Of a stretch of 64,000 nt of DNA, positions 12,142 to 43,347 are shown one piece after another; position 1 is the first letter of the stretch, and every line of letters starts with the position of its first letter. The position numbers and the translations under genes are program-made. The stretch comes from Candidatus Nomurabacteria bacterium. GTDB taxonomy: Bacteria > Patescibacteriota > Minisyncoccia > Phycocordibacterales > UBA9973. The notes under the pieces are model-generated. The model saw only the letters and a list, made by a program, of their open reading frames with translations, did no database searches and was not told where the DNA came from. The stretch covers positions 25,174 through 89,173 of the forward strand of contig CALRAL010000003.1 in NCBI GenBank assembly GCA_943350875.1, written 5' to 3'.

Positions 12142-12143
12142 TT

Positions 12144-25583: not shown

Positions 25584-25644
25584 TCTTGTAAAAGTTATCC
25601 CCGTTTTTGTTGTGTATTAGTGGTAGACCTGTATAATTGGACTA

Positions 25645-28600
25645 ATGCGTACAAACAAGACGTTTAGTTTCCTGTTTGTGTTTTTTATTTTTCTCAGCAT
25701 TTTCTATATTTTTACTCCGAAAGTTTACGCTAATTCTCCGACCATTGTGACGAATAATATTACGGAAAATATAACTTGGAATTTAGAAGGAAGTCCATAT
25801 TTAGTGGTTGATCATATCACTGTAATTCGGGGTGTGACCCTTACTATAGATGCAGGAGTTGTTGTTAAATTTGACGACAACTCCATCGCTGTTTTAGGTA
25901 CCATAAATGTAAATGGTACTTCTGGCTTACCAGTATTTTTTACTTCGTATTATGATGATACAGTTAGTGGTAGTATTGATGATAAAGAATCTTGTTATGA
26001 AAATATAGATGAGGAAGGTAATGACTTAGGTGAAATTTGTGAAACCTACGATCTGGGCGATCCATCTTTTGAGGATTGGCATGGAATTTTTGTAAGTGAT
26101 ATAACAGGTGCTAGCAATTTCTCTTATGCTAATTTTAGCTATGCTAGAACTGCCTTATTTTTAGATAGTAATCCTTCATTTACAGCGGACGATATAAATA
26201 TCAATGAAGCCAAGAGTGGTATTACCATTAGTAAAAGCACAGCTAATTTTTCAAATTTAAAGGAAAATAATGTTTCTTCTGATGGTTTGGTAATTTATGA
26301 TCATGGCATTGTCACTTTGGATGGTTTTATAAATGCTGGTAGTCGTGATGCAGTGAGTGTTTATAATACGAGCTCTCTTACACTAAAAAATGCTAGCATT
26401 TCAAGTGCCTTCGGTGATAGTATAGCTATTTTTAATGATAGTAGTTTAATTTCGACCAATGTAATGATAAGTGAATCATTCCACAATTCTCTAGCCATTT
26501 TTAATAACAGTAAGGCAGTTTTTAATAATAGTAAAATCACTAATGGTCAATATATCTTTAATGCTGTTGCGGTTTTTAATGATTCTTCACTTTCAGCGGA
26601 TAAGACTATTTTTGATGGAGGTTTAAGTGGCGGTATTGAAATTTTTAATAGTTCTAAGCTAATACTGACGCATTCTGTCGTGAAGAATTTTCTAACAGCA
26701 GGTATCGAAGATTATGGAAGTGAATTAAATTCCGAGCCTAATGTTATTTCTATTAATAATTCAAGCATCACAAACAATGATATAGGGCTAGACATTTATA
26801 ATGCACCTACTCGGACTCCTACTACACTCTTGGTTTCCAATAATATTATTTCAGACAATACTTCTTTTGGGGCACGGACTTTTAGTGAAATTATTGATGC
26901 ATCTTTTGAGAAGAATTGGTGGGGAGACAAAACTGGACCATACAATGACCCCTCGAATCCTGATGGCCTAGGTGATATGGTTTCCAGTCATATAGCCTTT
27001 ACTCCATGGTGTCTGAATAAATTCTGCTCTTTTCATGAGTCTGTGATAATCATCCCGGGGATAATGGGTTCAGAAATTGTAAAGAATTATGATGATTTTG
27101 GGGAAGTGTGGCCGAATGTCACGAAGCTAGTCCTTTCTTTCTTTGACGGCCACTTAGATGAGCTGATATTGAACCCTGACGGCACGGAGAGTGTAGACAG
27201 GCCAATGCTCGAGCCAGACATCATCCGGAAGACAGTCACGACAGATACATTTGATGGATTGATCAAAGAATTAACCGCTAATGGCTATGAAGAGGGCAAG
27301 GATTTATTTGTTTTCCCTTATGATTGGCGCAAAGATAATGCAGAGACAGCTCTAAAGTTGAAAGAGAAAATTGCAGAAGTGCTGAAGATAGATGGAGGGA
27401 CAAAGGTAGACATCGTTGCGCACTCGATGGGTGGCTTGGTAGCGAAGGCATACATTGCAGAGAACGGCGTCAGTAAAGTGGACCAGCTTTTCTTTGTAGG
27501 CACACCGCACCTGGGTGCGCCAAAGGCCTTCAAAGCTCTGATGTATGGAGATGATATGGGAATAAATACATTTTTTGGTTTTATACAACTTTTAAGTCCA
27601 AACAGAATAAGAGTAATTTCTCAAAATATGCCTGCAGTATATGAGCTCCTACCAAGTCGGAAATATGTGGATACTTTGGGTTTTAAATATGTAAAAGATT
27701 TATTTACTGGTTTCTTGTATGGAGCGGAACTTGCGAATTTGAATTATGCAGATACGCAGGCTTTGATGGTCAAAGATGGCAGGAATAAAGATATGTTTCT
27801 GATGGCGAATAGTTTACACGAGAGCATAGATAGTTTAGATTTATCCAAAATAGACGTTTATAACTTCATCGGCGCCGGCACGAAGACCTTGGGCAAGATA
27901 ATAATCAAAAACAAGAGGGAGAGGATGGGCTTCTTCTCCCTTTTCTCTCCAGACTATATGTTGGAGTATGTGAGTGGCGACAAGACAGTGCCGAAGGCCT
28001 CGGCGGAGGGCCAAATATATGGCAAGAAATATTACGTAGATAGCGTGTCACACTCAGAGCTTCCTTCATTCCAAAGTGTGAGAGATAAAATCTTGGAAAT
28101 ATTAAAGAAAGATACAGAGAAAGATTTAGCACATCTTTCAAAGAATCAGAAAGCGTACAATATATCTGGCAAAGTAGTGAGCTCACATGATTCTGTGGTG
28201 CTTCATATATATGATGACGCGGGGCACCATACAGGCCCAGTGGATGAAAAGGGTGTACCATCAAAGACGAATACTGGCCATATAGAACAGGGGATAAGCG
28301 GGGTGAGCTATGACCAGATAGGGGCAAATAGCTTTGCTTTCTTGCCAGCTGAGGGACATTATAAAGTAGTGAATTATACAGCAGAGGCTGATTCTACCGG
28401 ATATTACAATTTTTACATTGAAAACATAGACACAGATGATATAAAGACAAAAGAGACATATTGGGACCAAATACCTGTGAAAACTCCTGAGACTGTTTCT
28501 GAGATAGATGTAGTGGATGATGTAGCTATTCCAGATCCATCAATACCAGAAGCTTTACCTGTAATCCTTGTGGATAATGATGGCGATGGTGTTTTTGAGC

Positions 28601-29232
28601 AGAGCATCACTCCTTCTTCAGTGCTTGATACAGTACAGGCATCTGACTTGATTCCGCCAGTGGCTGTGGGCTCTGTAGTAGAGAATACTGTCTCTATTAT
28701 ATCTACCGATGAGAACTCGGGGGTATTAAAAACTGAATATTCTACAGACGGAGCGACTTGGCTGAAATATGAAATTCCTATTTTAGTAAAGCCTCATACT
28801 GACGGCACAGAGATAGTTTTCCAATATTTTTCTACTGATAAAGCGGGGAATGTGGGCGAAGTGAAGACTCTAAATATTCTACCATCAGTACCTGAAAAGG
28901 TAATTGCTCAAGATGTTGTGCCTGTAGTGCATAGTTCTGGAGGCGGACATGTGTTTTTGAATAATCAACCGAATATTCCCGTTTTAGTAACTGTAGTGCA
29001 AAATAAAGAAGAAGTGACAGAAAAAAAGCCGAAGGTCCCGACAACAGGAGGGATAAAAAAGAAGACCGTAAAAGTAGCTGTAACACCAAATATTCCTAAA
29101 AATAAAATAGAGCCGATAGACCTTACAGCTTCAGCGGGCAGTACGGGCACACATACGAATACAGTGCTACTTATCTCTGTCATAGGTGGTTCTGCAGTTT
29201 TGTTATTAGCTAAAAGGTTTATAAAAATGTAG
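25645..29232 (+). CDS. Large secreted surface protein with a right-handed beta-helix region, an alpha/beta-hydrolase (LCAT/PGAP1-like lipase, GxSxG) domain, and a C-terminal TM anchor with a basic tail
   Basis: 1195 aa with a signal peptide and NNS/NDS beta-helix repeats. DIVAHSMGGLVAKAY is the serine nucleophile elbow. It ends in a hydrophobic helix followed by KRFIKM. Confidence 0.5.
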   Translation: MRTNKTFSFLFVFFIFLSIFYIFTPKVYANSPTIVTNNITENITWNLEGSPYLVVDHITVIRGVTLTIDAGVVVKFDDNSIAVLGTINVNGTSGLPVFFTSYYDDTVSGSIDDKESCYENIDEEGNDLGEICETYDLGDPSFEDWHGIFVSDITGASNFSYANFSYARTALFLDSNPSFTADDININEAKSGITISKSTANFSNLKENNVSSDGLVIYDHGIVTLDGFINAGSRDAVSVYNTSSLTLKNASISSAFGDSIAIFNDSSLISTNVMISESFHNSLAIFNNSKAVFNNSKITNGQYIFNAVAVFNDSSLSADKTIFDGGLSGGIEIFNSSKLILTHSVVKNFLTAGIEDYGSELNSEPNVISINNSSITNNDIGLDIYNAPTRTPTTLLVSNNIISDNTSFGARTFSEIIDASFEKNWWGDKTGPYNDPSNPDGLGDMVSSHIAFTPWCLNKFCSFHESVIIIPGIMGSEIVKNYDDFGEVWPNVTKLVLSFFDGHLDELILNPDGTESVDRPMLEPDIIRKTVTTDTFDGLIKELTANGYEEGKDLFVFPYDWRKDNAETALKLKEKIAEVLKIDGGTKVDIVAHSMGGLVAKAYIAENGVSKVDQLFFVGTPHLGAPKAFKALMYGDDMGINTFFGFIQLLSPNRIRVISQNMPAVYELLPSRKYVDTLGFKYVKDLFTGFLYGAELANLNYADTQALMVKDGRNKDMFLMANSLHESIDSLDLSKIDVYNFIGAGTKTLGKIIIKNKRERMGFFSLFSPDYMLEYVSGDKTVPKASAEGQIYGKKYYVDSVSHSELPSFQSVRDKILEILKKDTEKDLAHLSKNQKAYNISGKVVSSHDSVVLHIYDDAGHHTGPVDEKGVPSKTNTGHIEQGISGVSYDQIGANSFAFLPAEGHYKVVNYTAEADSTGYYNFYIENIDTDDIKTKETYWDQIPVKTPETVSEIDVVDDVAIPDPSIPEALPVILVDNDGDGVFEQSITPSSVLDTVQASDLIPPVAVGSVVENTVSIISTDENSGVLKTEYSTDGATWLKYEIPILVKPHTDGTEIVFQYFSTDKAGNVGEVKTLNILPSVPEKVIAQDVVPVVHSSGGGHVFLNNQPNIPVLVTVVQNKEEVTEKKPKVPTTGGIKKKTVKVAVTPNIPKNKIEPIDLTASAGSTGTHTNTVLLISVIGGSAVLLLAKRFIKM

Positions 29233-29241
29233 AATGCTATT

Positions 29242-29583
29242 ATGGCTGGAAAATTACAAAATTTATTTCATACTGAAACTTGGTGGGGTAAAACAATTTT
29301 TATTGTTTTAGTATATTCTATTTTCTGGTGTATTTCTTATGGAAGTATTCTTCTTATTCCAGAAGATACTTTCACTAATTCCAATAGTTATATGCCTTTT
29401 TTCTTATTTATTTATGTTGCAGTATTATTACCTATCTTGAGTTTATTTTTTACTTCTCGTATTAGAAAATCTATTTTTATAAAACATTATTATTTATTTA
29501 ATACCATTTTTATAATTTTATCTCTTCTCTTATTTTTTTACATTGATTTATTAAAGTCAATGCCTAATTGGTTTAATTTCTAA
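29242..29583 (+). CDS. Small polytopic membrane protein, hypothetical
   Basis: 113 aa with three predicted TM helices. Confidence 0.25.
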   Translation: MAGKLQNLFHTETWWGKTIFIVLVYSIFWCISYGSILLIPEDTFTNSNSYMPFFLFIYVAVLLPILSLFFTSRIRKSIFIKHYYLFNTIFIILSLLLFFYIDLLKSMPNWFNF

Positions 29584-29715
29584 TCCACTTTACTTTACTA
29601 AACTAAAGTAGATAGGAGGGGGGAATGGGAGTTTTTTTTAAAGGTCTTTCCTTGAAGGGGGAGCGTAGCGACGGGAAAGGTGAGGCCTTGGGGAGTTTTG
29701 TGGTAGACTTAAGGG

Positions 29716-30009
29716 GTGAAGAAGAAACCATCAAAATTAAAGTCTACAAAAGACAGGGTTATCAAATATTGTATTCTTTGTAGTAGTAAAATTAAGGTTA
29801 TTTTATATACTGACCGTTCTTATGTGGGTGGGTATTATTTTGGTAAGATTCCAATGTCTACAAAAAAAGAATGGGCAAGAGTTATGAAACTTGGAACAAG
29901 GAAATCAAAAATAGGGAGTTTAGATATTCAAGTCTTAAAAGAAGATCCAAAACCATATAAATATTTTGAGTATTGGGAATGTTTGAAGTGTTGCACGGAT
30001 GCTATTTGA
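29716..30009 (+). CDS. Small basic hypothetical protein with CxxC...CxxCC (zinc-ribbon-like) cysteines
   Basis: 97 aa with YCILCSS and WECLKCC, at the edge of the accessory island. Confidence 0.3.
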   Translation: MKKKPSKLKSTKDRVIKYCILCSSKIKVILYTDRSYVGGYYFGKIPMSTKKEWARVMKLGTRKSKIGSLDIQVLKEDPKPYKYFEYWECLKCCTDAI

Positions 30010-30143
30010 GCCTGTTTTTCTAGGTGTTTTTGTGGTAAAATGAATGTTTAATATAAAGAACAAATTAGATATCTAAAACTTATGATGATTACAAAATTGG
30101 TGAAAGTGGTTGGGATTTTAGTTAATAAACTTTTGAAATAATT

Positions 30144-33100
30144 ATGGCAATTACCAACATTGGAACAAATACATTATCTTCAAACCTAAAAACAATCTTA
30201 CCTGAGTGCGACAAGATTGATGCTTTAGTTGGCTATTTTTATTTTTCAGGGTTTAAAGATTTACACAATGAACTAAAAGATAAACAAATCCGTATTCTTG
30301 TGGGAATGGATATTGATAAAAAAATTATTGAAAAAGTATCAACGTTAAAAGAATTAAATTTAGACTCTTATTCTATAGATACTCACATAACTTCCCGATC
30401 AAGTGTTACTGAAGATTATATTGATAATTTCTCTCAAATTTTTAATGATAATGATTATTTCGATAACGAAGAATCACAAAATGCATTTGAAATATTTTTG
30501 AATAAAATAAAAGACGGTAGTTTGCAAATTAAGAAAACAGCTAAGGCTAACCACTCTAAATTTTATATACTACATAATAAAAATGGAGGCGGAATAGTAA
30601 TTGAGGGCTCAAGCAATTTAACGTTATCCGGATTGCGAGGACAAGCGGAACATAATAGAATCTTGACTGAAAAACATTATTACGATGATGATGTAAATAG
30701 ATTTGAAGAATGCTGGAACGATCAAGAGAATATAATTTTAACTAATATTGAATCAGCGGATAATTTTATAAAAGAAGTAAAAAGTAAAATTTGGTTATAT
30801 GCATTACCTGACCCACTGTTAATGTATTATAGAGTTTTAAATGAATATTTCTCAATTACTGAAATTGAGAATATGAAGACTCCTAAAAACATAACTGCTG
30901 GTAAGTTCTCTGATTTAAAATATCAAAAAGATGCGATTAATTTAGGTATTGATAGAATAAACAAATTTGGTGGTGTAATTATTGCAGATGTTGTTGGACT
31001 TGGAAAAAGTATTATTGCTTCAGCAATTGCACATAATTTGGGATTAAAAACTGTGATAATTGCTCCACCTCATCTTGAAGATCAATGGAATGACTATCGT
31101 TCTGATTTTAATTTTAACGGATTTGTTTACAGCACAGGTAAAATTGAAGAAGCCCTTGAAAGACATCAAAATGACGAAAAACTCCTCATTGTTTTAGATG
31201 AAGCACATAAACATAGAAATGAGGATACAGATAATTATAAACTTCTTCATAAACTTTGTGCCGGTCATCCTGTTATGGCTCTTTCTGCCACACCATTTAA
31301 CAATGATCCTAAAGATATTTATGCTTTGATAAAATTATTTAGTACACCCGGACAATCTACCATAAGGACAGTAGAAAATTTAAGCATGGCTTTCCATACT
31401 CTTTTTAAGAGATATAAAAAAGTTAGAAAAGATTTAAGAAAAACTAATGCAAAGGAAGAAAAGAAAGATGAAGTAAATAAAGAATCACATGAAATAGCAA
31501 AATATCTTAGAATAATGATCGAACCACTCATTATTCGTCGTTCCCGTAGAGATTTAGAAGAAATAGAAGATTATAAAAATGACCTAAAAAATCAAGGGGT
31601 TGCTTTTGCGAAAGTGAAAGAACCGGAATTGCTAGAATATCCACTTAACGGAATGTCAGACCTTTACATTAGAACACTTGAAAAAATATCACCGAATGAT
31701 AAAAGTGTAAGTTTTCGTGGTGTTCGATACAAGATATTAAGTTATTTAAAAGAGGGTTCAAATTTTGCTGAAAAATTAGTAGAAGATATTGATGATGATA
31801 GTATTTCTGCAGAAGAAAAAGTACAGCAAATTAAACAAGCTCAAGTAAACATAGCAAAATTTATGAGACGTTTGCTTGTGCGTAGATTTGAGAGTTCTGT
31901 TGGTGCTTTCAACATATCTCTTGAAAATATGATAACTTCTTCTGAAAAAATTCTTGAATGGTATAAAAATAGGCAAGAAATTCCAATATATAAGAAGGGT
32001 GAACTACCAACCGCAGAATATCTAAACGATTTAGATGAGGAAGAATTGGAGGGGGTTTTATCTAATTTGGACGCTAAAGGATTAATTCGTGTTCCCACTT
32101 CTGAATTACAATCTTCTTTTGAAAAACACTTAAATGAAGATATCGCATTATTAAAAAAAATAAAATCAGAATGGTTAGAAAATAATGAAGATCCTAAATT
32201 TGATTTCCTTAAAGAAAAAATTGCGAATTCTATATCAAGTGATTCTAATAGGAAAATTATAATTTTTACTGAATTTTCTGATACTGCAAATTATTTATTT
32301 AAAAAATTTAATGAGGATAATTTTAAGCGTATTTTCAAATATAGCTCAGAGGATTCTAACGATACTAATAAAAAGATTATTCGTTCAAATTTTGATGCTG
32401 GATTAGAAAAATTACAACAGGCTAACGATTTTGATGTAATTATCGCCACAGATGCAATTTCTGAAGGTTTTAATTTACATAGAGCAGGAAGTGTTATAAA
32501 TTACGATATTCCTTATAATCCAACAAAGGTTATACAGCGAGTTGGTCGTATTAATCGCATTAATAAAAAAGTTTTTGAAGAATTATATATTTTTAACTTT
32601 TTTCCTACATTTATTGGTGAAGAAGAAACCGGTATGCGTTCTATATCCACACTAAAAATGGATTTTATTCATGATCTTTTGGGTGAAGATACAAAAATCT
32701 TAACAAAAGAGGAAGACCTGAAAAATTATTTTGCTAAACAATATCAAGAAGAAAATACTAAAAATGATAGTTTGTCTTGGGATGCAAGATATAGAAATGA
32801 TTGGCTTAAAATAAAAGATGATCAAGATATAATTGCAAAAATTTCAAAGATTCCTCATAGATCAAGAATTGCTAGAAAATCTAAAGATATTTCTGGTGTT
32901 GTAGCATTTGCAAAAAAGGGTTCAAATTACATTTTTGCATTTGGTGAGAACCCTGAAAATGTTCGGATTGTTTCGCCTGAAGAAGCATTACCACTTTTCA
33001 ATGAAGTTGCTGATATGGAAAAATCTCTTGAGACAAGTATTAAATTTGAGCCCATCTATAAAATAGCAAAAGAACATATATTTAAGGACAATACCCACGC

Positions 33101-33404
33101 ACCGATAGACACCGGCAGAAGACAAGACGCTTTGTTGAAATTAACCCTTATCAAAGAAAACTACACACAAGCAGTTGAGTTGTGTAAAGATTTAGAGACT
33201 TTAATAAAAGATTTTGATGCGCTACCAAATGGGTTACTAAAAGATATTATTGACTTATCTATTGATAGAAATGATTATAGTAAGATTTTTAAAGAATTAA
33301 AAAATATGTTTCCTAATAATTATATTAAAAAGTTATTCCTAACAGCTGATAAAGCCAAAGATAATGGAAAACTTATTGTATTATCCGAAGAACTAATTGC
33401 ATGA
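30144..33404 (+). CDS. Fusion protein of a PLD-family (HKD) nuclease domain and an SNF2/SF2 helicase. Candidate restriction or DISARM-like DrmC+DrmD-type effector.
   Basis: 1086 aa. The N-terminus has the HKD motif NHSKFYILHNKNGGGIVIEGSSNLT. The SNF2 motifs are I (ADVVGLGKS), II (LIVLDEAHKHRN), III (SATPFNND) and V/VI (TDAISEGFNLHRAGSVINYDIPYNPTKVIQRVGRINR). It overlaps the downstream MTase by 4 bp. Confidence 0.75.
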   Translation: MAITNIGTNTLSSNLKTILPECDKIDALVGYFYFSGFKDLHNELKDKQIRILVGMDIDKKIIEKVSTLKELNLDSYSIDTHITSRSSVTEDYIDNFSQIFNDNDYFDNEESQNAFEIFLNKIKDGSLQIKKTAKANHSKFYILHNKNGGGIVIEGSSNLTLSGLRGQAEHNRILTEKHYYDDDVNRFEECWNDQENIILTNIESADNFIKEVKSKIWLYALPDPLLMYYRVLNEYFSITEIENMKTPKNITAGKFSDLKYQKDAINLGIDRINKFGGVIIADVVGLGKSIIASAIAHNLGLKTVIIAPPHLEDQWNDYRSDFNFNGFVYSTGKIEEALERHQNDEKLLIVLDEAHKHRNEDTDNYKLLHKLCAGHPVMALSATPFNNDPKDIYALIKLFSTPGQSTIRTVENLSMAFHTLFKRYKKVRKDLRKTNAKEEKKDEVNKESHEIAKYLRIMIEPLIIRRSRRDLEEIEDYKNDLKNQGVAFAKVKEPELLEYPLNGMSDLYIRTLEKISPNDKSVSFRGVRYKILSYLKEGSNFAEKLVEDIDDDSISAEEKVQQIKQAQVNIAKFMRRLLVRRFESSVGAFNISLENMITSSEKILEWYKNRQEIPIYKKGELPTAEYLNDLDEEELEGVLSNLDAKGLIRVPTSELQSSFEKHLNEDIALLKKIKSEWLENNEDPKFDFLKEKIANSISSDSNRKIIIFTEFSDTANYLFKKFNEDNFKRIFKYSSEDSNDTNKKIIRSNFDAGLEKLQQANDFDVIIATDAISEGFNLHRAGSVINYDIPYNPTKVIQRVGRINRINKKVFEELYIFNFFPTFIGEEETGMRSISTLKMDFIHDLLGEDTKILTKEEDLKNYFAKQYQEENTKNDSLSWDARYRNDWLKIKDDQDIIAKISKIPHRSRIARKSKDISGVVAFAKKGSNYIFAFGENPENVRIVSPEEALPLFNEVADMEKSLETSIKFEPIYKIAKEHIFKDNTHAPIDTGRRQDALLKLTLIKENYTQAVELCKDLETLIKDFDALPNGLLKDIIDLSIDRNDYSKIFKELKNMFPNNYIKKLFLTADKAKDNGKLIVLSEELIA

Positions 33405-36400
33405 TAAATTTTAATGATAAATATAATTATAATGAGTTTATAGATTTCTTATGTAACTTTCTACCGAATGACTTCAAGGAAATAGAAAAAGATATTGTTA
33501 TAAAAAAAGAAAGATATAAAGAAATTTCTAAAGCAAAAATACTTGGCTATTCAAGCTCTTTAGATTTGCATGTATTAGAAATGGATCATGCTCGTGAAAA
33601 TGACCCGAGAATTACGATTGCGACAGATGCTTTCAAAATACTTGCTGATAATTGGGTACATAAAGCTTTAGTAATCTTCAAGAACAGCACTTCAGATAAT
33701 TATCGATTTTCTTACTTAACAATATCTATAGATTTAAATGATAAAAATAAACCAATTAAAACATATTCAAACGCCCGCCGGTATTCTTTTTATCTTGGTT
33801 CCGGCGCAAAAATTAACACCCCAAAACAACAACTTGTTAGTAAGGGTCGAATAAAAGATTTAAATGATTTAGTAAGTAGATTTTCTGTTGAAGTTGTGAA
33901 TAAGCAATTTTACTTTGAGATTGCAAAATTCTTTGATGAACTTGTTTCGAGTGAGGATAAAAATCTAGCACTTCCGGGTATATCAGAAGAAGACACGAAT
34001 ATCAGAAAGAGTTTTGCTGTTCGGCTTATTGGTCGTATAATGTTTTGTTGGTTTTTGAAACAGAAAAAATCTGACAATGGTCAACTTATTCCTGATGAAC
34101 TACTTTCCTCAAAAACAGTATCGGATAGTTATTATCACAGTACTCTTGAACCATTATTTTTCGGCGTATTAAATACCAGCATTGAATCTCGAGATATTCG
34201 TAGTGATTTGTTTGATAAAGTGCCGTATCTCAATGGAGGACTGTTTAATCCTCAATCAGACGACTATTATGACCTAGATAGAGAAACTTTTACCTCGAGA
34301 CATATTAACACTCTTAAAATCAGTGATGACTGGTTCAAGAACTTCTTTGAGCTTCTCGAGACTTATAATTTTACAATTGATGAGAATACTGTTTTTGATC
34401 AAGAGCTTTCTGTTGATCCAGAAATGCTTGGAAGGATTTTTGAGAATTTGCTTGCAGAAATAAACCCAGAAACTGGAAGCAGTGAGCGTAAGCGTACGGG
34501 AAGTTTTTATACGCCACGTCAGATTGTTGAATATATGGTAGACCAGTCTTTGATTGAATATTTAAAAACAAAAACAGGGATTCAAGATAAAAAATTATCT
34601 GCTCTTGTTAGCTACGATTTAGCAGACGATACAGAGCACCCACTAGACGATAAGGATAAACAAGAAATAATAAACGCAATAGAATCTCTTAAAATTCTTG
34701 ATCCAGCTTGTGGTTCGGGGGCATACTCAATCGGTGCGCTTCAAAAAATTGTTTATATTCTTCAACAAATAGATCCAGATTGTAAATTATGGCTTGAGCA
34801 AAAATTAAAAGGTGTTCCAGAGTTGTATAAGAAAAAAATAATTGATGAAGTTAAATCGAACCCTTTTGACTACACACGGAAACTAGATATTATTAAAAAT
34901 TCAATCTTTGGCGTAGATATTCAGCCAATTGCTGTAGATGTTTCCCGTTTGAGATGCTTTTTGACACTTGTCGTTGAGTCAGAAGTAAATGATACAAAAC
35001 TAAACAGAGGGATAGAACCTTTACCGAACTTGGACTTTAAATTTGTCTGTGCAAATACTTTGATTAGCTTGCCAAAATCTCAATCTAGCAATCTTTTCGA
35101 AGACCATTCCGGTATCATCGAGCTTTCAAAAATAATGTCGGAATATTTCTCTTGCAATAGCCAAAGAAAAAATGAAATTAAACTTAAATTTACAAATTTA
35201 CAAAAAGAAATACTAGAAAAGACAATATCCGCTTTCGGTAAAAATACGGGAGAGCTAACTTTAAAACTTACAACTTGGAATCCATTTAGTAATAATTCAA
35301 ATTCTTGGTTTGACCCGGAATGGATGTTTGGGTTGGAGGAAAAGTTTGATGTGGTTATCGGTAATCCGCCCTATGTTGATTCAGAGACAATGGTAAAAGA
35401 TAACCCTGATTTGAGAAATTTGTATACTTTGCTTTACAAAACAGCTATAGGTAATTGGGATTTGTTTATCATTTTTATAGAGCAGGGCATCAATTTTCTA
35501 AGCAATTATGGAAATTTGTCATTTATCGTGCCTAACAAATTGATTGCTGCGAAATATTCTGAGTCTATTAGATTACACATGCAGACTAAAAATATAAAAT
35601 ACATAAGAGATTATTCTGATGTGAGAGTATTTAAGGAAGCGAGCGTGTATCCTATTGTTTTTCAGATATCGAACTCATTGAATTCAGATTCAAGCGTTAT
35701 CTTAACAAAAATGAAAGATATCGAAGAATATGAATTAATTAACAAAATACCCCATGCACTGTTTTATGCGGATGTATTTTGGGATAGGTATTTTATAAAA
35801 CCAGAAGCACTCAAGGTAATTATTAAAATCTCACAAAATCCTAAACTTGAAAAAATTAATGATTTAGTTTTGGGTGCAGCCACTGTTAATGAAGCATATA
35901 AATTAAAAGAAATTATTACTGAGGCAGAAATTGAAAAACAAGAATATAAAAAACTAATTAATTCCGGGACAATTGATCCATATACTTCTTTATGGGGTGA
36001 CAAAAAAACTCAATATATTAAATCGTCATATAAAGTGCCTGTGGTGGAAAATGACAAGCTAAATAAATTATTACCGAGACGATTTATTCAAGCAAATAGT
36101 GAAAAGCTTATTATTGCCGGGATGTCAAAGAGATTAGAGGTTTTCTATGATTCCGGTGAATACATTGCTGGTAAATCTACCACAATCATTTTAAATAATG
36201 AGAAAATTGACTTGTTATATTTACTTGCAGTTCTTAATTCAAAATTGATTTCTTATTGGTATAAGGTATATTTTAGTTCTTTGTCACTTGCTGGAGGTTA
36301 TTTGAGAATTAGTAATAACGAAATCAAAAAGATTCCAATTGTAGTGGCTAATAAAAAGACGCAAGAAGGTATAATTAAAATTGTTAACCAAATTCACGAT

Positions 36401-36514
36401 TGTAAAAAAGGAAGTAATAAAAATACAGACGACCTAGAGTCAAAAATTGATGAATTGGTCATGGATTTATACGGACTAAATGAAGATGAAAAAGAAATTA
36501 TTAGAAATTCGTAA
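33401..36514 (+). CDS. Large gamma-class N6-adenine DNA methyltransferase (Eco57I/type IIG/BREX-PglX-like) with a C-terminal specificity region
   Basis: 1037 aa with LGRIFENLL...GSFYTPRQIVEYMV, motif I LDPACGSGAYSIG and motif IV VIGNPPYV. It is translationally coupled to the PLD-SNF2 gene. Confidence 0.8.
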   Translation: MINFNDKYNYNEFIDFLCNFLPNDFKEIEKDIVIKKERYKEISKAKILGYSSSLDLHVLEMDHARENDPRITIATDAFKILADNWVHKALVIFKNSTSDNYRFSYLTISIDLNDKNKPIKTYSNARRYSFYLGSGAKINTPKQQLVSKGRIKDLNDLVSRFSVEVVNKQFYFEIAKFFDELVSSEDKNLALPGISEEDTNIRKSFAVRLIGRIMFCWFLKQKKSDNGQLIPDELLSSKTVSDSYYHSTLEPLFFGVLNTSIESRDIRSDLFDKVPYLNGGLFNPQSDDYYDLDRETFTSRHINTLKISDDWFKNFFELLETYNFTIDENTVFDQELSVDPEMLGRIFENLLAEINPETGSSERKRTGSFYTPRQIVEYMVDQSLIEYLKTKTGIQDKKLSALVSYDLADDTEHPLDDKDKQEIINAIESLKILDPACGSGAYSIGALQKIVYILQQIDPDCKLWLEQKLKGVPELYKKKIIDEVKSNPFDYTRKLDIIKNSIFGVDIQPIAVDVSRLRCFLTLVVESEVNDTKLNRGIEPLPNLDFKFVCANTLISLPKSQSSNLFEDHSGIIELSKIMSEYFSCNSQRKNEIKLKFTNLQKEILEKTISAFGKNTGELTLKLTTWNPFSNNSNSWFDPEWMFGLEEKFDVVIGNPPYVDSETMVKDNPDLRNLYTLLYKTAIGNWDLFIIFIEQGINFLSNYGNLSFIVPNKLIAAKYSESIRLHMQTKNIKYIRDYSDVRVFKEASVYPIVFQISNSLNSDSSVILTKMKDIEEYELINKIPHALFYADVFWDRYFIKPEALKVIIKISQNPKLEKINDLVLGAATVNEAYKLKEIITEAEIEKQEYKKLINSGTIDPYTSLWGDKKTQYIKSSYKVPVVENDKLNKLLPRRFIQANSEKLIIAGMSKRLEVFYDSGEYIAGKSTTIILNNEKIDLLYLLAVLNSKLISYWYKVYFSSLSLAGGYLRISNNEIKKIPIVVANKKTQEGIIKIVNQIHDCKKGSNKNTDDLESKIDELVMDLYGLNEDEKEIIRNS

Positions 36515-36577
36515 ATAACAGGAAAAATCACTGTAACCGGCGTAAGTGATTTTTCAAAACTTCAACATAAGAAGTTT

Positions 36578-36796
36578 TTAACCGCGTGGTGGAAATGGAT
36601 CGTTTCCAAAAGAGTTTCTTTCACGAATTTTGCCATCTCGTCCGTGGATGAGAAGTTCAACTTGGTATGCTATTGCAAGTGATGTACCAGAATCTATGAT
36701 TTCTGATTGTGTCTTTGCTGTAAATACCGGATATGGATTGTGTTCTTGTTTGAGTGCCCAGTTTTGTCCGTTTTTTACTACATGTAGATTACTCAT
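36578..36796 (-). CDS. DUF2188-like small protein
   Basis: 72 aa with the C-terminal LIHGRDGKIRERNSFGNDPFPPRG signature, which I recall as typical of the DUF2188 family. Called from memory of the family consensus. Confidence 0.35.
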   Translation of the reverse strand: MSNLHVVKNGQNWALKQEHNPYPVFTAKTQSEIIDSGTSLAIAYQVELLIHGRDGKIRERNSFGNDPFPPRG

Positions 36797-36951
36797 AATG
36801 AATTTGAATTAAAGTTTTATTATTTTAGTTCTGTAATTTTCATTTCTTCGATTTCAGTGCCGGTTTCTGGTAAGCCGAAATGTAGACCTACATTTGCATT
36901 ATAGCATATTTTTTATTGAATCCAAAATTTTGCCGACGAAGAGGGGGATTG

Positions 36952-37118
36952 ACTTGAACGAAGCTCATGAACTCTGGCAAGAGCTTTAACTTTAACTTCA
37001 CCACTCAGCTAGGCCTTACCTATCAATTAACAAGGCCCAAAATCAATCTACTTTACTCAACTAAAGTGTAGAATGGTTTTTGGGGTTCTGTGAATTATCA
37101 TTACTGTGATAGACTTAG
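36952..37118 (+). repeat. Direct repeat copy A of an approximately 170-bp repeat (AACGAAGCTCATGAACTCTGGCAAGAGCTTTAACTTT ... ATCAATCTACTTTACTCAACTAAAGTGTAGAATGG...)
   Basis: Approximately 85-90% identical to copy B at 37352-37520. It contains a degenerate CTAGGC..CCTA hairpin. Confidence 0.7.
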
Positions 37119-37127
37119 CAAGTGAAA

Positions 37128-37304
37128 GAAGAAAATAATGTTGCCTATATAGACGGAGCTAACTTGCACAATGGTGTGGAAACTTTAGATTGGGAATTTG
37201 ATTACAAACGCTTCAGAGTATGGTTAAAAGAAAAATACAGTGTTAAGCAAGCTTATTTATTTCTAGGATTAATTCCAAAATATAAAGATCTTTGAATAGT
37301 AAGA
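37128..37304 (+). pseudogene. Truncated NYN-domain gene fragment (VKEENNVAYIDGANLHNGVETLDWEFDYKRFRVWLKEKYSVKQAYLFLGLIPKYKDL*)
   Basis: I translated it by hand. It is homologous to the N-terminal 60 aa of the NYN protein at 10021..10542, has a GTG start and a premature stop, and is flanked by the 170-bp direct repeats. Confidence 0.45.
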
Positions 37305-37351
37305 ACCGTTCTTGCTATAGGACATGACTTCAAGAACTTATCGATGAAACT

Positions 37352-37520
37352 GGATTAGATGTAAACGAAGCTCATGAACTCTGGCAAGAGTTTTAACTTT
37401 CATTCTATGAATTGCTAGGCAAGACCTAGCAATTACAATTAACAAGGCCCAGAATCAATCTACTTTACTAAACTAAAGTGTAGAATGTTTTTTTGATTCT
37501 GTAAATCGTCATAGTAATTT
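37352..37520 (+). repeat. Direct repeat copy B of the approximately 170-bp repeat, containing the GCTAGGCAAGACCTAGC hairpin
   Basis: See copy A. Its internal hairpin is identical to the rpsR terminator core at 57466-57482. Confidence 0.7.
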
Positions 37521-37536
37521 TAATATTTCAGAGAGC

Positions 37537-37830
37537 TTATGATTTAGTCTTGAATGGTCGTTTGTTTGCTTCTTTTAGAATTCTAAGTGTTGCTTGTACT
37601 GAAAGGTTCTCGCTGGTAAGAAGCACTAATCTATCATTCAACTGATTAAGTAATGGGCTTAAAAACTCATCTGCCCATGATGGCGACAATGTCAAAACAC
37701 CAGCGAAATCTATTTCTAGTTCTTCGTCTTTAGGAAACTCACGCAAGGTCGGAGTAAATGCTTTGAAAGCCTCACTGCCCAATTCTCGTGATATTAATGT
37801 CTTTCCAAATTTTTCTAATTGTAATTTCAT
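37537..37830 (-). CDS. STAS-like DUF4325-type small protein, the putative partner of the upstream GHKL ATPase
   Basis: 97 aa with an anti-sigma-antagonist-like fold signature (ELEIDFAGVLTLSPSWADEFL). It is immediately downstream of 37855..38610 on the same strand. Confidence 0.45.
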   Translation of the reverse strand: MKLQLEKFGKTLISRELGSEAFKAFTPTLREFPKDEELEIDFAGVLTLSPSWADEFLSPLLNQLNDRLVLLTSENLSVQATLRILKEANKRPFKTKS

Positions 37831-37854
37831 ATATTTTAAAAATTATTAAACTAC

Positions 37855-38610
37855 TTAAAATTCTATTTTTGCTAAACAGCCTCGTACGATACGCTGACCA
37901 CGCGTAACATGAAACACTTTGTCTGGACTACTCATACGTACTTCGGCATCACCACTTTTATAAAATAAATCTATTGGCTGATCAGTAACGACTTCTCTGA
38001 CAAGTTTCAAACCGTTCCCGCGCTTCTCCGGCGCACGCCCAGAAATGAATTCTGTAAAGGCGACTTCCACGGCAGCGACATGGCTCGGAAGCTCCGGCCG
38101 AATTTGCCGTAATGTTTCTAAAATGCCCAATCCTCTATCGGCAAGAACAATGATCCGTTTTTCCAGATCGTAGCCAAAGAATATTCCCGCGGTGTCTGGC
38201 CATTTGCCTAAGTTGTGAGCAAACGAGTTATCACCAATCTCCCCAGTAATCAAAGTGATCAAAGAATACAACTGCTCAAACCCTGGCTTTCCCAATAATG
38301 CATTTTGCATCTTAATCAGTCTGGCATTAAAAATAGAACTTGTCGGACAGTAAAACGTCCCCGGGAACTCAGTCCCATTTTCTATCCAATCGGATGCAAA
38401 CTTTATCAAATCGCTAGCAAATATTTCCAAGTCTTTTTCACGGTAATATCGATGAGTACCCCCGTCCTTTTTAATCGGTAGCAGTTTACCGCTTTCGTCC
38501 CAACGACGAAGCGTTTGCAAGGAAATCCCTAGATATTCAGCTGCCTGGCTGATTGTAAGTAATTTTTCATCCATATAATTAAGGATACCATAATATACAA
38601 ATCTATACAA
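37855..38610 (-). CDS. MerR-type HTH fused to a GHKL (HATPase_c, RsbW-like) ATPase/kinase domain
   Basis: LTISQAAEYLGISLQTLRRWDESGKL is the MerR/excisionase HTH. The ATPase shows N-box ITGEIGDNSFAHN and G-boxes LADRGLGI and RGNGLKLV. The real start is probably the internal Met at about 38574, since the annotated start is TTG. Confidence 0.55.
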   Translation of the reverse strand: MYRFVYYGILNYMDEKLLTISQAAEYLGISLQTLRRWDESGKLLPIKKDGGTHRYYREKDLEIFASDLIKFASDWIENGTEFPGTFYCPTSSIFNARLIKMQNALLGKPGFEQLYSLITLITGEIGDNSFAHNLGKWPDTAGIFFGYDLEKRIIVLADRGLGILETLRQIRPELPSHVAAVEVAFTEFISGRAPEKRGNGLKLVREVVTDQPIDLFYKSGDAEVRMSSPDKVFHVTRGQRIVRGCLAKIEF

Positions 38611-38650
38611 CTAGAAGATAAATCTATACAAAAATATACCAATCTATACA
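38600..38650. promoter_or_regulatory. Three direct AATCTATACA repeats spaced 20-21 bp apart, immediately upstream of the MerR-GHKL gene
   Basis: Repeats at 38600, 38621 and 38641 have about two-helical-turn spacing, which is iteron- or operator-like. Confidence 0.4.
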
Positions 38651-38777
38651 TTTCTTAGTAAAAACTACCCTTAAAATAGTTTCGTATAATCAGCTAGGCC
38701 TTGCCTAGCAGTTTTGCTCGGTTTTAGGCTGATAACCGTGAAAAATGGCATTAAAAACACAGCTTTTCACGATTATG

Positions 38778-38805
38778 TTGACAAAAGCGTGAAAATGACT
38801 ATAAT
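38778..38805 (+). promoter_or_regulatory. Consensus sigma70-type promoter (TTGACA, 16-bp spacer, TATAAT) for the Fic gene, overlapped by three CGTGAAAA repeats
   Basis: TTGACA lies at 38778-38783 and TATAAT at 38800-38805. The CGTGAAAA octamer occurs at 38742, 38764 (reverse complement) and 38787. Confidence 0.55.
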
Positions 38806-38807
38806 AG

Positions 38808-39710
38808 ATGTATATGGCGAAAGTCCCTGCAGTATTTAATAAAATAAATTCTCTTCGCGAGAGGTACTGGAAAGCTTTCAATAACAAAGAATCTCTAATT
38901 AAACTTGTTAGCGAGTCAGAAATTGCTGAGCAAGTGTATAACTCAAATGCTATCGAAAATAGTACTCTTACACTTGAAGAAACAGAAAAAATTTTATTAC
39001 AGATTGACCTAGATCGATATATAAGTGAGCGCGAGATTTTTGAAGCCAAAAATCTCGCGCGAGTGGTGTCATATATTGAGAAGCGAGCAAAAGAACAGGA
39101 GTTAACACTTGAAGTTGTATTATCACTTCACAAGATGCTTATTTCAAATATTCGTGATGAAATTGCAGGCAGGTTTAGAAAAGAAAAAGAATTTGTGCGA
39201 GTGGGTAGTCACATTGCTCCCGCACCGCAAGAAATACTTGAGAGGTTGGGAAATATGCTCGCAGAATATAATGCAAATAATCATGAAAATATTGTAAAAT
39301 GTATTGCACGATTGCATTTAGATTTTGAGTATATCCATCCATTTATCGATGGCAATGGTTGTATTGGTCGCGCGCTTAATAATTATCTTTTGATTCGTGA
39401 AGGATTTGTCCCCATCAATATTAAATTTATAGATCGCAAAAAATATTATGATGCATTTAAAGAATTTGATGAAAAAGGTAAAATAGAAATAATGGAAGAA
39501 ATTGTTGCCAAAGCTCTGACCAATAGTTATCACAAGCGTTTGGCATATTTAGAAGACAAGAAAATTATAACATTAGTGGAATATGCAAAATCTCAAAAAA
39601 TTTCTCATTCAAATTTGATAAATAAAGCTAAACGACAAACTATTGAAGCTTTTATGGAACGAGGGATTTGGAAAATAGGAGTTGAGTATAAGAAAAAATT
39701 ATATGAATGA
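38808..39710 (+). CDS. Fic/Doc family protein (AMPylator or toxin-like)
   Basis: 300 aa with the canonical Fic motif HPFIDGNGCIGRAL. The start may be the ATG at 38814, giving a leaderless transcript. Confidence 0.8.
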   Translation: MYMAKVPAVFNKINSLRERYWKAFNNKESLIKLVSESEIAEQVYNSNAIENSTLTLEETEKILLQIDLDRYISEREIFEAKNLARVVSYIEKRAKEQELTLEVVLSLHKMLISNIRDEIAGRFRKEKEFVRVGSHIAPAPQEILERLGNMLAEYNANNHENIVKCIARLHLDFEYIHPFIDGNGCIGRALNNYLLIREGFVPINIKFIDRKKYYDAFKEFDEKGKIEIMEEIVAKALTNSYHKRLAYLEDKKIITLVEYAKSQKISHSNLINKAKRQTIEAFMERGIWKIGVEYKKKLYE

Positions 39711-42700: not shown

Positions 42701-43347
42701 ATCTGGCAAAACTTATGGCACCATTTGCTCCCTTTTCTGCGGAAGATATCTGGCAGAAATTGAAAAATGAGGAAGATGTAGAAAGTGTGCATTTGGTAGA
42801 TTGGCCAAAAGTGTCAAAGGGCATCTTTGACATGTTTAGCAAAAAAGAGGAGAAAGTCTTGAAAAATATGCAAATTGTGCGTGATATTGTTTCTCTTGGG
42901 CTTGAAGCGAGGCAGAAAGCGGGGATAAAAGTCCGTCAACCGCTCGCTACGCTCAAGTGTAAAGTAGAAAGTGGAAAGTTGTCGAGTGAATACTTGGAAC
43001 TTATTAAAGACGAGTTGAACGTAAAAGAAGTATTATTAGAGCCTCGAGCCTCGAACCTAGAAACTAATGTAGAACTCGATACAAGAATAACTCCAGAATT
43101 AAAATCTGAAGGAGATTATAGGGAGCTTGTGCGAGCAATACAGGATATGAGGAAAAAGATGGGGCTGACTCCGAGTGATGTGGTGTCTTTCTCCTTTGAC
43201 ACAAATGAAGAAGGAAAAAAGTTAATCCAGAATTTTGAAAAGGAACTAAAAAAAGTAATTCTTGCTTCAGAAATAAAATTCATGGCAAATGATGGCGACC
43301 CAATCGTTATAGATGAACTAATATTTAAAATAAAAGTGGTAAAATAA
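39682..43347 (+). CDS. ileS: Isoleucine--tRNA ligase with an inserted histidine-phosphatase (PGAM-like) domain and two short in-frame palindromic-element insertions
   Basis: 1221 aa with HVEPQ (HIGH-like), TTTPWTLPGN, HKPYIDE, KMSKSKGN and the anticodon-binding domain. The phosphatase insertion is bounded by FVMRHGEAENN...SSPFERTRET...LLVSHAG at about 41300-41925. Confidence 0.9.
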   Translation: MSIRKNYMNEENVKNNKSEVALREERVLEFWEQNKIFEKVSKKVAKKGDYVFYDGPPTANGMPGLHHVEPQSFKDLIPRYKTMRGYNVLRKAGWDTHGLPVELQVEKALGLKSKKDIEKYGVELFNQKCKESVWQYKAEWMKMRTRMGFWTDLENAYVTYTNNYIEALWGVVQKADERGFLYKDFKILPWCPRCGTALSSHELNQPGAYKDVKDLSVYVKFKIIGGNDAFAGSLSPSVDGALPLGSSACETPRQKHIATNFYILAWTTTPWTLPGNVALAVGNDIDYVKVKFGGEILILAEARLSVLGGEYEILEKLKGKDLIGLEYEPLFPYLSAQGGSASGGKDFSESIKNAFKIYPADFVTTTDGTGVVHTAVMYGVDDFELGTKLNLPKYHLVNEEGKFIKGTGFLEGRYVKEADENGKPTLAVDIIDDLTKRGLLFKKENHLHSYPHCWRCDTPLIYYARMSWYFKMSALRSQLMAGNEKIHWEPEHIKHGRFGEWLDGIKDWAISRDRYWGTPIPVWQKKDGTYKTIGSLSELKKYTKKSGNKYFVMRHGEAENNMGELYKVDPTQSFNLTEKGCQQVLENIKNFKEKVDVIISSPFERTRETTKIVCEFLGFPLDKVIYDDRVQEWEVSSMFNGKTRKEMKQYYDNDYMYAPHESLADAESFIHVVKRTGDFLYDIESKYKDKTILLVSHAGAGRAMTFVSNGATFTDLPNRPDITKMLDNAEIKKLDFVPLPHNQNYELDFHKPYIDEIILEENGEQMSRTPEVMDVWFDSGAMPYAQSHVLGTPMDFSPAKADYISEAIDQTRGWFYTLHAVINLVNNKSSNAFKNVICLGHILDANGQKMSKSKGNVVDPWMMFDKYGADTLRLWMYSVNQPGESKNFDEKNVLELNRQVFGLLYNIVAFYELYRDKDLEIIQGQSLREFPQGLSFKNILDIWILARLNELIELTTKNLDSFKLLEPTRAMKDFINDLSTWYLRRSRDRLKDEDKNAKLTLYFVLKNLAKLMAPFAPFSAEDIWQKLKNEEDVESVHLVDWPKVSKGIFDMFSKKEEKVLKNMQIVRDIVSLGLEARQKAGIKVRQPLATLKCKVESGKLSSEYLELIKDELNVKEVLLEPRASNLETNVELDTRITPELKSEGDYRELVRAIQDMRKKMGLTPSDVVSFSFDTNEEGKKLIQNFEKELKKVILASEIKFMANDGDPIVIDELIFKIKVVK
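40351..40460. repeat. MITE-like 110-bp GC-rich element with perfect 13-bp terminal inverted repeats (ATTGGTGGCAATG / CATTGCCACCAAT), in-frame in ileS just upstream of TTTPWTLP
   Basis: The terminal and nested inverted repeats (CTCCGTC/GACGGAG) are visible directly. It encodes IGGNDAFAGSLSPSVDGALPLGSSACETPRQKHIATN. Confidence 0.7.
40685..40717. repeat. Family-4 palindromic element (CCGCCCAAGGCGGATCCGCCTCTGGCGGAAAAG), in-frame in ileS
   Basis: It shares GGATCCGCCTTGGGCGGAAAA with the copies at 57605-57628 and 62428-62451 and encodes SAQGGSASGGKD. Confidence 0.7.

Follow-up and report, generated by a model that had tools for sequence, protein, structure and literature searches.

The 64,000-nt stretch of DNA analysed here (the window), which forms part of a 150.5-kb ENA contig from a bacterium of the Candidate Phyla Radiation (CPR), carries two overlapping genes, the first of which (gene 1) encodes an HKD/phospholipase D (PLD) nuclease fused to a Swi2/Snf2 ATPase, and the second (gene 2) a gamma-class N6-adenine DNA methyltransferase furnished with a specificity domain. 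The pair is a genuine, intact and horizontally acquired two-gene operon of the restriction–modification (R-M) kind, that is, a mobile defence-type cassette of this CPR bacterium. With a probability of roughly 0.68, it constitutes a self-contained ATP-dependent R-M system, in which a Res-like and a Mod-like protein reproduce the logic of the Type III and Type ISP enzymes from different parts. In its manner of working the pair resembles Type III systems or the recently characterised MANTIS system, and it is a member of neither.

Both open reading frames (ORFs; 1086 and 1037 aa, respectively) were recovered exactly where an earlier reading made from the letters of the window, hereafter termed the sequence-only reading, had placed them, and so was their 4-bp overlap, an ATGA junction in which the stop codon of gene 1 meets the start codon of gene 2 (Table 1). 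Such an overlap is consistent with translational coupling. The G+C content of the pair (0.29-0.30) is the lowest in the window, which averages about 0.36.

Gene 1 is composed of an HKD nuclease domain, a Swi2/Snf2 ATPase core that accommodates a helical insertion (aa 471-680), and a C-terminal region. Among the Pfam families, PLDc_2 was matched just over its threshold on residues 46-191 (29.6 bits, cut-off 27), SNF2-rel_dom on residues 346-472 (E 1e-10) and Helicase_C on residues 687-807 (E 1e-16), and ResIII stayed under its cut-off (18.3 bits against 22.5). The translation displays one HKD motif per chain, H137-S-K139 ... G155-S-S-N158 (nt 30552-30560 and 30606-30617), together with the Walker A motif G285LGKS289 (nt 30996-31010), D352EAH355 (nt 31197-31208) and motif VI, Q798RVGR802 (nt 32535-32549). 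Residues H137, K139, S156, N158, K288, D352, E353, H355, Q798, R799 and R802 do not vary among 52 close homologues, nor among 45 distant ones (28-61 % identity), the latter taken from a family of 839 clusters (50 % identity, E <= 1e-30). The fusion of an HKD nuclease to a complete SNF2 helicase, which had been proposed from the sequence, is thereby borne out, with all motifs intact. The top PADLOC match of gene 1 is 'HKD+Snf2' (1e-31, 108 bits, residues 26-853), followed by DrmD, and PHROG 26785 covers residues 3-862 (3e-100). The AlphaFold2 (AF2) model (predicted local distance difference test, pLDDT, 71.6) found its best Foldseek matches in RapA, at the top, and in SWR1, SRCAP, BAF, CSB, Chd1 and Mot1, and SauUSI was not among the top 50. 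The C-terminal region (66 % mean pairwise identity) is covered by no Pfam, NCBIfam or PADLOC model.

In gene 2, Pfam matched an Eco57I methylase on residues 500-744 (E 1e-31) and TaqI_C on residues 892-980 (E 1e-10), in addition to N6_Mtase, and gave weak MmeI_hel/DUF7814 matches on the helical spacer. The S-adenosylmethionine (SAM) motif I, P435ACGSG440 (nt 34703-34720), precedes motif IV, N655PPY658 (nt 35363-35374), which places the enzyme in the gamma class. None of 62 homologues departs from PxCGSG or NPP, and at least 90 % of them also have the Y of NPPY. The PADLOC family REase_MTase_IIG was matched at 3e-84 over model positions 202-563 only, leaving unmatched the first 200, which form the nuclease part. 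A PDB profile search and Foldseek, the latter run with an AF2 model of mean pLDDT 72, returned CamA, M.BseCI, PglX/BrxX and TaqI, with BrxX/PglX aligned over about 1050 columns; a profile was required for this, as the search with the single sequence gave just TaqI. Gene 2 had been taken for an Eco57I/PglX-like N6A methyltransferase with a C-terminal specificity region, and the Eco57I and TaqI_C matches together with the motif order uphold that assignment. It is proposed to be the methylase-specificity protein, namely the Mod-like subunit for modification and target recognition.

The sequence-only reading had also described a long N-terminal helical region in gene 2, which holds for the spacer at aa 136-330 and fails for aa 1-135, which are alpha/beta. 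This domain has no Pfam match, and the AF2 model resolves it (pLDDT about 80-89) into H10-20, E25-32, E42-51, E56-63, H70-83 and E88-95. The resulting alpha-beta-beta-beta-alpha-beta topology is PD-(D/E)xK-like, and the domain occupies the same place as the nuclease of MmeI-type enzymes. At position 62, where the catalytic lysine would be expected, the 62 CPR homologues have D/E/N/S/Q and never K; in distant relatives the position is K/Y/D/S/T/N/E, and the acidic residue upstream is likewise not conserved. Some of these distant relatives, which are Bacteroidota-like, retain an E-x-K (E-V-K or E-I-K) here, whereas the CPR clade is devoid of it. The domain is proposed to be a degenerate nuclease domain and is possibly the interface with gene 1. 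Because it lacks a conserved nuclease site, the HKD domain is left as the sole candidate nuclease, and gene 1 is likely the nuclease-motor of the pair and its proposed restriction (Res-like) subunit.

The two genes differ in the way in which variation is distributed along them. Gene 1 is evenly conserved, with mean pairwise identities of 64-81 % per region. Gene 2 shows 70-83 % over aa 1-560 (79-83 % over aa 136-560) and 65 % over aa 561-640, and then falls to 35 % at aa 641-760 and to 19 % in the target recognition domain (TRD), so variable that the TRDs of the 62 homologues form 35 clusters at 50 % identity. The divergence of gene 1 follows that of gene 2 aa 1-560 (Spearman 0.72) but not that of aa 645-1037 (0.19), coefficients for which P values are not meaningful, the sequence pairs being non-independent. 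Since gene 1 co-diverges with aa 1-560 and not with the cassette, the N-terminal part of gene 2 is suggested to work together with gene 1. At the DNA level, 9 loci lose homology to the window at 35370-35384, at the NPPY codons, and 5 lose it at 35059-35065. Breaks of this kind would be expected if recombination at conserved motif-coding sequences swapped the specificity modules. No silent specificity cassettes or shufflon were present in the window.

The co-inheritance of the two genes was followed in 25 CPR loci from GTDB species representatives, in which gene 1 is 61-74 % identical to that of the window. In all 24 loci with room for it, a gene 2 homologue begins at the stop codon of gene 1 or within a few bases of it, and all seven IMG/VR loci (40-74 % identity) likewise have gene 2 immediately after gene 1. 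For both proteins, the nearest homologues stem from metagenome bins of CPR/Patescibacteria, among them Moranbacteria, Paceibacteria and Nomurabacteria, and all-against-all ORF clustering of the 25 loci and the window revealed no third gene conserved beside the pair. In 24 of the 25 loci, DNA homology to the window sets in at 30093-30217, around the start codon of gene 1 at 30144, and where it runs through, it ends at 36353-36515; since these limits coincide with those of the pair, the shared unit is exactly two genes. The best non-self match of the neighbouring arginyl-tRNA synthetase (ArgRS) is 70 % identical, as against 92 % for gene 1 and 90 % for gene 2, the latter two being found on different contigs. 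The pair has been acquired horizontally, as is evident from this higher identity, from its low G+C content and from the absence of the surrounding island in the three nearest relatives. The sequence-only reading would have been undermined by a housekeeping-like distribution; the pair is instead patchy and mobile.

A further indication of mobility was encountered in 10 of 25 CPR loci, where the pair adjoins a large serine recombinase, a terminase-large-like gene, a small HTH gene, a ParB-fused DNA methylase and a LexA-like repressor; the loci with this recombinase/terminase module are L001, L002, L009-L013, L015 and L016 among the genomes and L029 and L030 in IMG/VR. Such adjacency suggests that a CPR prophage or integrative element carries the pair along at its edge. 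None of the serine recombinase, terminase, ParB-methylase or LexA-like genes of the module occurs in the window, and no full-length gene 1 homologue was detected in cultured-phage genomes.

The closest match among described systems is provided by the HKD-SNF2 plus Eco57I-type loci of PMC9881135, with which architecture and gene order are shared. In these loci, a cd09178/cd18793 coding sequence (CDS) neighbours a Cj0031-like one, and the pair belongs with them because it has both a PLD-Snf2 fusion CDS and an adjacent Eco57I methylase CDS. In Bacteroides ovatus CP083813.1, a PLD(cd09178)+SNF helicase CDS lies immediately 5' of an Eco57I/Cj0031-type R-M CDS, and the methylase varies by programmed inversion (PMC9881135), whereas the window, devoid of silent cassettes, belongs to a family in which the variation lies between genomes. 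The same pair is carried by the Parabacteroides distasonis plasmid NZ_OY725763.1 (WP_009274870.1 and WP_009274871.1), gene 1 being 41 % identical over 99 % of its length and gene 2 35 % identical from the N-terminal domain to the C-terminus. Fusions of HKD domains to SWI2/SNF2 ATPases in R-M operons appear in a 2006 work as it is cited in PMC3417536, a 2026 preprint reports PglX-like methylases and SWI2/SNF2 ATPases to be enriched in CPR, and the gene 1 family has already been modelled in PADLOC, CDD and PHROGs. The architecture can thus no longer be called undescribed, as the sequence-only reading had believed it to be: PMC3417536, PMC9881135, the PADLOC and PHROG models, the P. distasonis plasmid and the characterised MANTIS system all speak against this. 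The literature searched held no biochemical or experimental study of the two-gene form, although REBASE and most subscription journals lay outside reach, so that this absence is no proof.

Among characterised systems, MANTIS comes closest. Also termed Gao_RL or BREX-related Type 2, it comprises four genes, MtsA-D, and was characterised in 2026 (10.64898/2026.09.23.753747; PMC12839542). Its effector MtsD combines an N-terminal HKD/PLD domain with an SF2/Snf2-type ATPase, as gene 1 does, and the TRD of its N6A methylase, MtsC, determines the specificity with which DNA is methylated as well as restricted. In contrast, MtsA (a DUF499 AAA+ ATPase) and MtsB (DUF3780) were found neither in the window nor in the regions flanking the pair in 24 related loci, and MtsC is of the DPPY type, whereas gene 2 is of the NPPY, Eco57I-PglX type with a TaqI_C TRD. 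If the PADLOC family 'HKD+Snf2' represents the Gao_RL effector, gene 1 would be at most a distant relative of MtsD, with a match of only 108 bits.

A likeness to the Type III enzymes (EcoP15I-like Mod2Res) lies in the division of labour, where the methylase holds the specificity and the other subunit unites an SF2 ATPase with a nuclease, and likely also in ATP-dependent communication along the DNA before cleavage. The parts are different: Type III Mod is a beta-class methylase with an internal TRD, whereas gene 2 is gamma-class with a C-terminal one; Type III Res couples a DEAD/ResIII-type motor to a C-terminal PD-(D/E)xK nuclease, whereas gene 1 has a Swi2/Snf2 motor and an N-terminal HKD domain; and the gene order here is res-mod. 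To describe the pair as Res-like plus Mod-like, as the sequence-only reading did, is nevertheless the best functional reading. The Type IIG/IIL enzymes (MmeI, Cj0031) share with gene 2 the layout of helical spacer, gamma methylase and TRD, but the N-terminal domain of gene 2 has no catalytic D...ExK. The Type ISP enzymes (LlaGI/LlaBIII) likewise combine the functions of nuclease, motor, methylase and TRD, in a single chain. What sets the pair apart from Type IIG, IIL and ISP alike is that motor and nuclease reside on a separate protein, and that the nuclease is HKD rather than PD-(D/E)xK or Mrr.

The pair had further been regarded as DISARM-like. Class 1 DISARM does employ the same vocabulary of SNF2 helicase, PLD nuclease and N6A methylase, and DrmD models match the C-terminal ATPase lobe of gene 1, but NCBIfam NF038317 (DrmD) reached only 137.4 bits against a cut-off of 610, on residues 557-904, and the DrmMI match of gene 2 is weak and secondary. 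No DrmA or DrmB (DUF1998) domain, the absence of which had been remarked before, turned up in the window ORFs scanned or next to the pair at any of 24 related loci, and the PLD protein DrmC is separate in DISARM, whereas here PLD is fused to the helicase. Membership in DISARM was accordingly rejected, the likeness being confined to shared domains. Membership in BREX was rejected as well, with no PglZ or BrxC in the window and an NCBIfam PglX match of 77 bits against a cut-off of 500. With SauUSI, a Type IV enzyme, gene 1 shares the order of PLD, motor and C-terminal domain and the single HKD motif per chain, which entails a dimeric site, but SauUSI targets modified DNA, needs no methylase and lies outside the top fold matches of gene 1. 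BfiI is an HKD nuclease which also has a single HKD motif per chain and possesses no motor.

From what was directly seen, namely the domains and their intact motifs, the coupling of the genes in an operon, their co-inheritance, the swapping of the cassette and the horizontal mobility, we infer a working cycle that would include binding of the two proteins to each other, translocation, cleavage by a dimer, rules of site orientation and an anti-phage or anti-plasmid role. Gene 2 would bind a short DNA site through its C-terminal TaqI_C/CamA/BseCI-like recognition domain and methylate an adenine there, using PACGSG for SAM and NPPY for catalysis, by which host DNA would be marked as self. The conserved N-terminal two-thirds of gene 2 would offer the docking surface for gene 1, whose Swi2/Snf2 motor may be switched on when gene 2 sits on an unmethylated site, and would then be driven by ATP along double-stranded DNA. 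Two gene 1 chains, either as a standing dimer like those of MtsD, SauUSI and BfiI or upon collision of two complexes, would build one HKD active site, which would cut both strands in turn, metal-free and via a phosphohistidine intermediate. Recombination at the conserved motif-coding sequences would replace the catalytic-lobe/TRD cassette of gene 2 and so create new specificities. A dimer of gene 1 is presumed necessary for cleavage because each chain has a single HKD motif and an HKD site uses two. In the HKD enzymes Nuc and BfiI, one active site is assembled from two motifs. The same has been described for MtsD and SauUSI (10.64898/2026.09.23.753747). The MANTIS effector, an HKD-SF2 motor nuclease resembling SauUSI, is a dimer that shares one PLD site, and it is targeted by the N6A methylase, whose TRD sets the specificity (10.64898/2026.09.23.753747). 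Cleavage favours inverted sites in Type III, Type ISP and MANTIS (for MANTIS, 10.64898/2026.09.23.753747). In Type III enzymes it depends on ATP and on unmethylated sites in inverse orientation.

A bolder formulation, which we hold to have about an even chance of being correct, takes the pair for an autonomous minimal two-component system, in which an HKD-Swi2/Snf2 motor nuclease takes its licence straight from a PglX/IIG-like methylase and needs no AAA+ loader. The pair would then represent a distinct and unnamed R-M type, a common mobile CPR chassis equipped with dozens of cassettes swapped at the NPPY-coding sequence, and the simplest model for the handover from methylase to helicase-nuclease in BREX-related, MANTIS and DISARM-type systems.

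Several points weigh against a self-contained R-M system. The interaction between the two proteins is inferred. The MANTIS methylase needs the DUF499 AAA+ ATPase and a small co-factor to load on DNA, and cleavage by the MANTIS HKD-helicase has not yet been reconstituted in vitro by its authors (10.64898/2026.09.23.753747), for which reasons an autonomous two-gene version is not guaranteed. Partners may be encoded beyond the 64-kb window. The E-x-K retained in some relatives makes a second nuclease activity possible in part of the gene 2 family, and both AF2 models are of moderate quality (pLDDT about 72; predicted template modelling score, pTM, about 0.45).

Four other explanations have to be weighed against this R-M reading. 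The pair may belong to a larger system of BREX-related, MANTIS-like or DISARM-like kind, of which only this part is in view, the DUF499/BrxC-type ATPase, DUF3780, DrmA/DrmB or PglZ being encoded elsewhere in the genome; this would suit the PADLOC ranking of gene 1 ('HKD+Snf2', then DrmD), the weak PglX/DrmMI matches of gene 2 and its long alignment with the BrxX/PglX structures, the requirement of MtsA and MtsB for methylation in MANTIS, and the fact that the window covers 64 kb of a 150-kb contig. We consider it unlikely, as genes of this sort are missing from the window and from the 10-kb surroundings of the pair in 24 CPR loci, the DNA common to the genomes comprises exactly the two genes, the NCBIfam scores for DrmD and PglX are far under their cut-offs, and gene 2 has a full TaqI_C/CamA-type TRD like the stand-alone methylases, unlike MtsC. 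That gene 2 is in itself a complete Type IIG/IIL enzyme of the MmeI/Cj0031 kind, which cuts with its N-terminal domain and leaves gene 1 as an accessory or as a separate, linked defence, appears quite unlikely. REase_MTase_IIG is indeed the top PADLOC family of gene 2, the spacer matches MmeI_hel, the topology of the N-terminal domain is typical of PD-(D/E)xK nucleases, and E-V-K/E-I-K stands at the expected place in the Bacteroidota-like relatives; yet the nuclease part of the IIG model (positions 1-200) finds no match in gene 2, the lysine position, never K in the CPR homologues, varies family-wide along with the unconserved acidic residue, and gene 1 is strictly linked to gene 2 and co-diverges with its N-terminal part.

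The notion that gene 1 is an autonomous SauUSI-like enzyme, being a Type IV nuclease or an abortive-infection effector beside an orphan or regulatory methylase, derives some appeal from the PLD - helicase - C-terminal recognition domain order of SauUSI and from the 226-aa C-terminal domain of gene 1, which could bind DNA. It is very unlikely, considering that the motor is Swi2/Snf2-like and SauUSI ranks outside the top 50 Foldseek matches, that a methylase coupled to a modification-dependent nuclease would harm its own host unless their specificities were disjoint, and that gene 1 is uniform (64-81 %) and only the TRD of gene 2 diversifies, which fits gene 2 supplying the specificity. A non-defence function, with an epigenetic regulator acting next to a DNA-remodelling or repair motor, could invoke the housekeeping roles of Swi2/Snf2 ATPases such as RapA, the top fold match of gene 1. 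Phase-variable Eco57I-type methylases can act as phasevarions, and phase variation of Cj0031 is on record in the literature. Nonetheless, the pair is patchy, horizontally transferred and missing from the nearest relatives, often adjoins a serine recombinase/terminase-like element, and combines an invariant HKD motif with a fast-diversifying TRD, so that this explanation is extremely improbable.

Table 1. Features of the two-gene R-M-like locus and its island (positions in the window; aa, amino acids of the respective protein)
Feature	Position	Strand	Evidence or remark
Gene 1, HKD/PLD nuclease - Swi2/Snf2 ATPase - C-terminal domain	30144..33404	+	Pfam, PADLOC, PHROG, AF2, Foldseek
Gene 1 HKD nuclease domain, aa 1-200	30144..30743	+	Pfam PLDc_2, RE_NgoFVII N-terminal PLD
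Gene 1 Swi2/Snf2 ATPase core, aa 256-860	30909..32723	+	Pfam, family conservation, fold matches
Gene 1 C-terminal region, aa 861-1086	32724..33401	+	Helices and small beta-sheet (AF2)
Gene 1/gene 2 ATGA start/stop overlap	33401..33404	+	4 bp; junction sequence GCATGATAA
Gene 2, gamma-class N6-adenine DNA methyltransferase and specificity domain	33401..36514	+	Pfam, PADLOC, PDB profile search, Foldseek
Gene 2 N-terminal alpha/beta domain, aa 1-135	33401..33805	+	AF2 topology
Gene 2 helical spacer, aa 136-330, and conserved N-terminal methylase part, aa 331-640	33806..35320	+	Pfam, conservation
Gene 2 swappable cassette, aa 641-1037: NPPY, rest of catalytic lobe, TaqI_C-type TRD	35321..36511	+	Divergence, homology breaks
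Accessory island between ArgRS and isoleucyl-tRNA synthetase (IleRS), 14.1 kb	25584..39681	.	Pfam; comparison with relatives L039-L041

The island that houses the pair contains an LCAT/beta-helix protein, small ORFs, the pair, DUF2188, a gene fragment, DUF4325, an HTH protein and Fic. Of the neighbours named by the sequence-only reading, Fic, DUF2188 and the STAS-like DUF4325 were found again, but the GHKL domain, which would fall in the C-terminal half of the HTH protein (37855-38610), received no Pfam support. The order SHMT - dNK - dUTPase - ArgRS - IleRS is kept in the three nearest relatives (L039-L041), where the ArgRS-IleRS gap measures 0.4-2 kb and holds variable small genes, the island being absent: a PIF1/nSTAND3-like helicase gene was located there in L039, whose gap lies at 11746-13748, and small ORFs only in L040 and L041. 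Since the gap spans 14.1 kb here, the pair is assigned to an accessory island at a variable hotspot. The remaining genes of the window are housekeeping ones, including those for H+-PPase, NusA, pilus components, glycolysis, RecJ, ComEC, tRNA synthetases and FtsK. Scans of the window for tRNA and Rfam families gave no matches, and the counts from promoter and terminator scans equalled the shuffled expectation and were uninformative.

A 20-nt motif, CTACTTTACTAAACTAAAGT, is present at 29590-29609, 37048-37067 and 37460-37479, that is, in three copies in 64 kb where 0.01 is expected; all of them flank the R-M pair and none lies elsewhere in the window. Their interpretation as att-like direct repeats was set aside, as the aligned copies consist of an AT-rich hairpin followed by a T-run, and they are probably terminators of one shared type. 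On the 3' side of the pair, a direct duplication of about 125 nt (36957-37081 and 37364-37493; spacing 407-412 nt, identity 95-97 %) lies on both sides of a 57-aa fragment ORF (37122-37295) with a weak C2185-like N-terminal match, which amounts to gene debris.

Several observations concern other genes of the window and of its relatives. Directly after ArgRS, a 1195-aa protein (25645-29232) joins a right-handed beta-helix to an LCAT/PGAP1-like alpha/beta-hydrolase (lipase), and it is absent from the ArgRS-adjacent position in the three relatives. ArgRS itself contains two G+C-rich 30-nt segments (23979-24008 and 24343-24372) in opposite orientation and in frame, with the core CCCCTTGCCAAGGGGGAG; they coincide with small insertions relative to the closest homologue, a copy with 3 mismatches occurs at 60517-60534, and they are reminiscent of small palindromic elements that insert in coding regions. 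IleRS (39682-43347) has a His_Phos_1 domain (aa 551-718) inserted within its class I catalytic domain, which is a feature of the lineage and not an assembly artefact, because the IleRS of L039, L040 and L041 carry it as well. In L039, a diversity-generating retroelement (bAvd and RVT_1) is situated about 9 kb upstream of the ArgRS-IleRS gap. Another variant of the HKD-helicase theme exists on the Thermaceae plasmids pMESIL02 of Allomeiothermus silvanus (L027) and pTHEOS02 of Thermus oshimai (L028), where relatives of gene 1 (29-32 % identity) follow a DNA methyltransferase gene and a hypothetical protein gene.

No new principle is disclosed by this locus. Comparative-genomics papers had earlier remarked on both the domain combination and the gene pair. 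What is new here is the exact two-gene transfer unit, the structure of chassis and cassette, whose junctions fall at the NPPY codons, and the nuclease-like domain, now decayed, at the N-terminus of the methylase. The cassette is abundant, a representative search having returned 839 clusters at 50 % identity (E <= 1e-30), and among the 120 closest homologues (63-92 % identical) those with a named source come nearly all from CPR, spread over several classes. CRISPR is missing from most CPR/Patescibacteria, which are believed to depend on restriction-type defences. The recurrent junction at the NPPY codons suggests a natural reprogramming of specificity, which could aid the prediction of methylation motifs and engineering. 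If two genes suffice, the pair would be the simplest known methyltransferase-directed HKD/Snf2 motor nuclease and would offer a tractable model for the restriction step of the MANTIS, BREX-related and DISARM systems.

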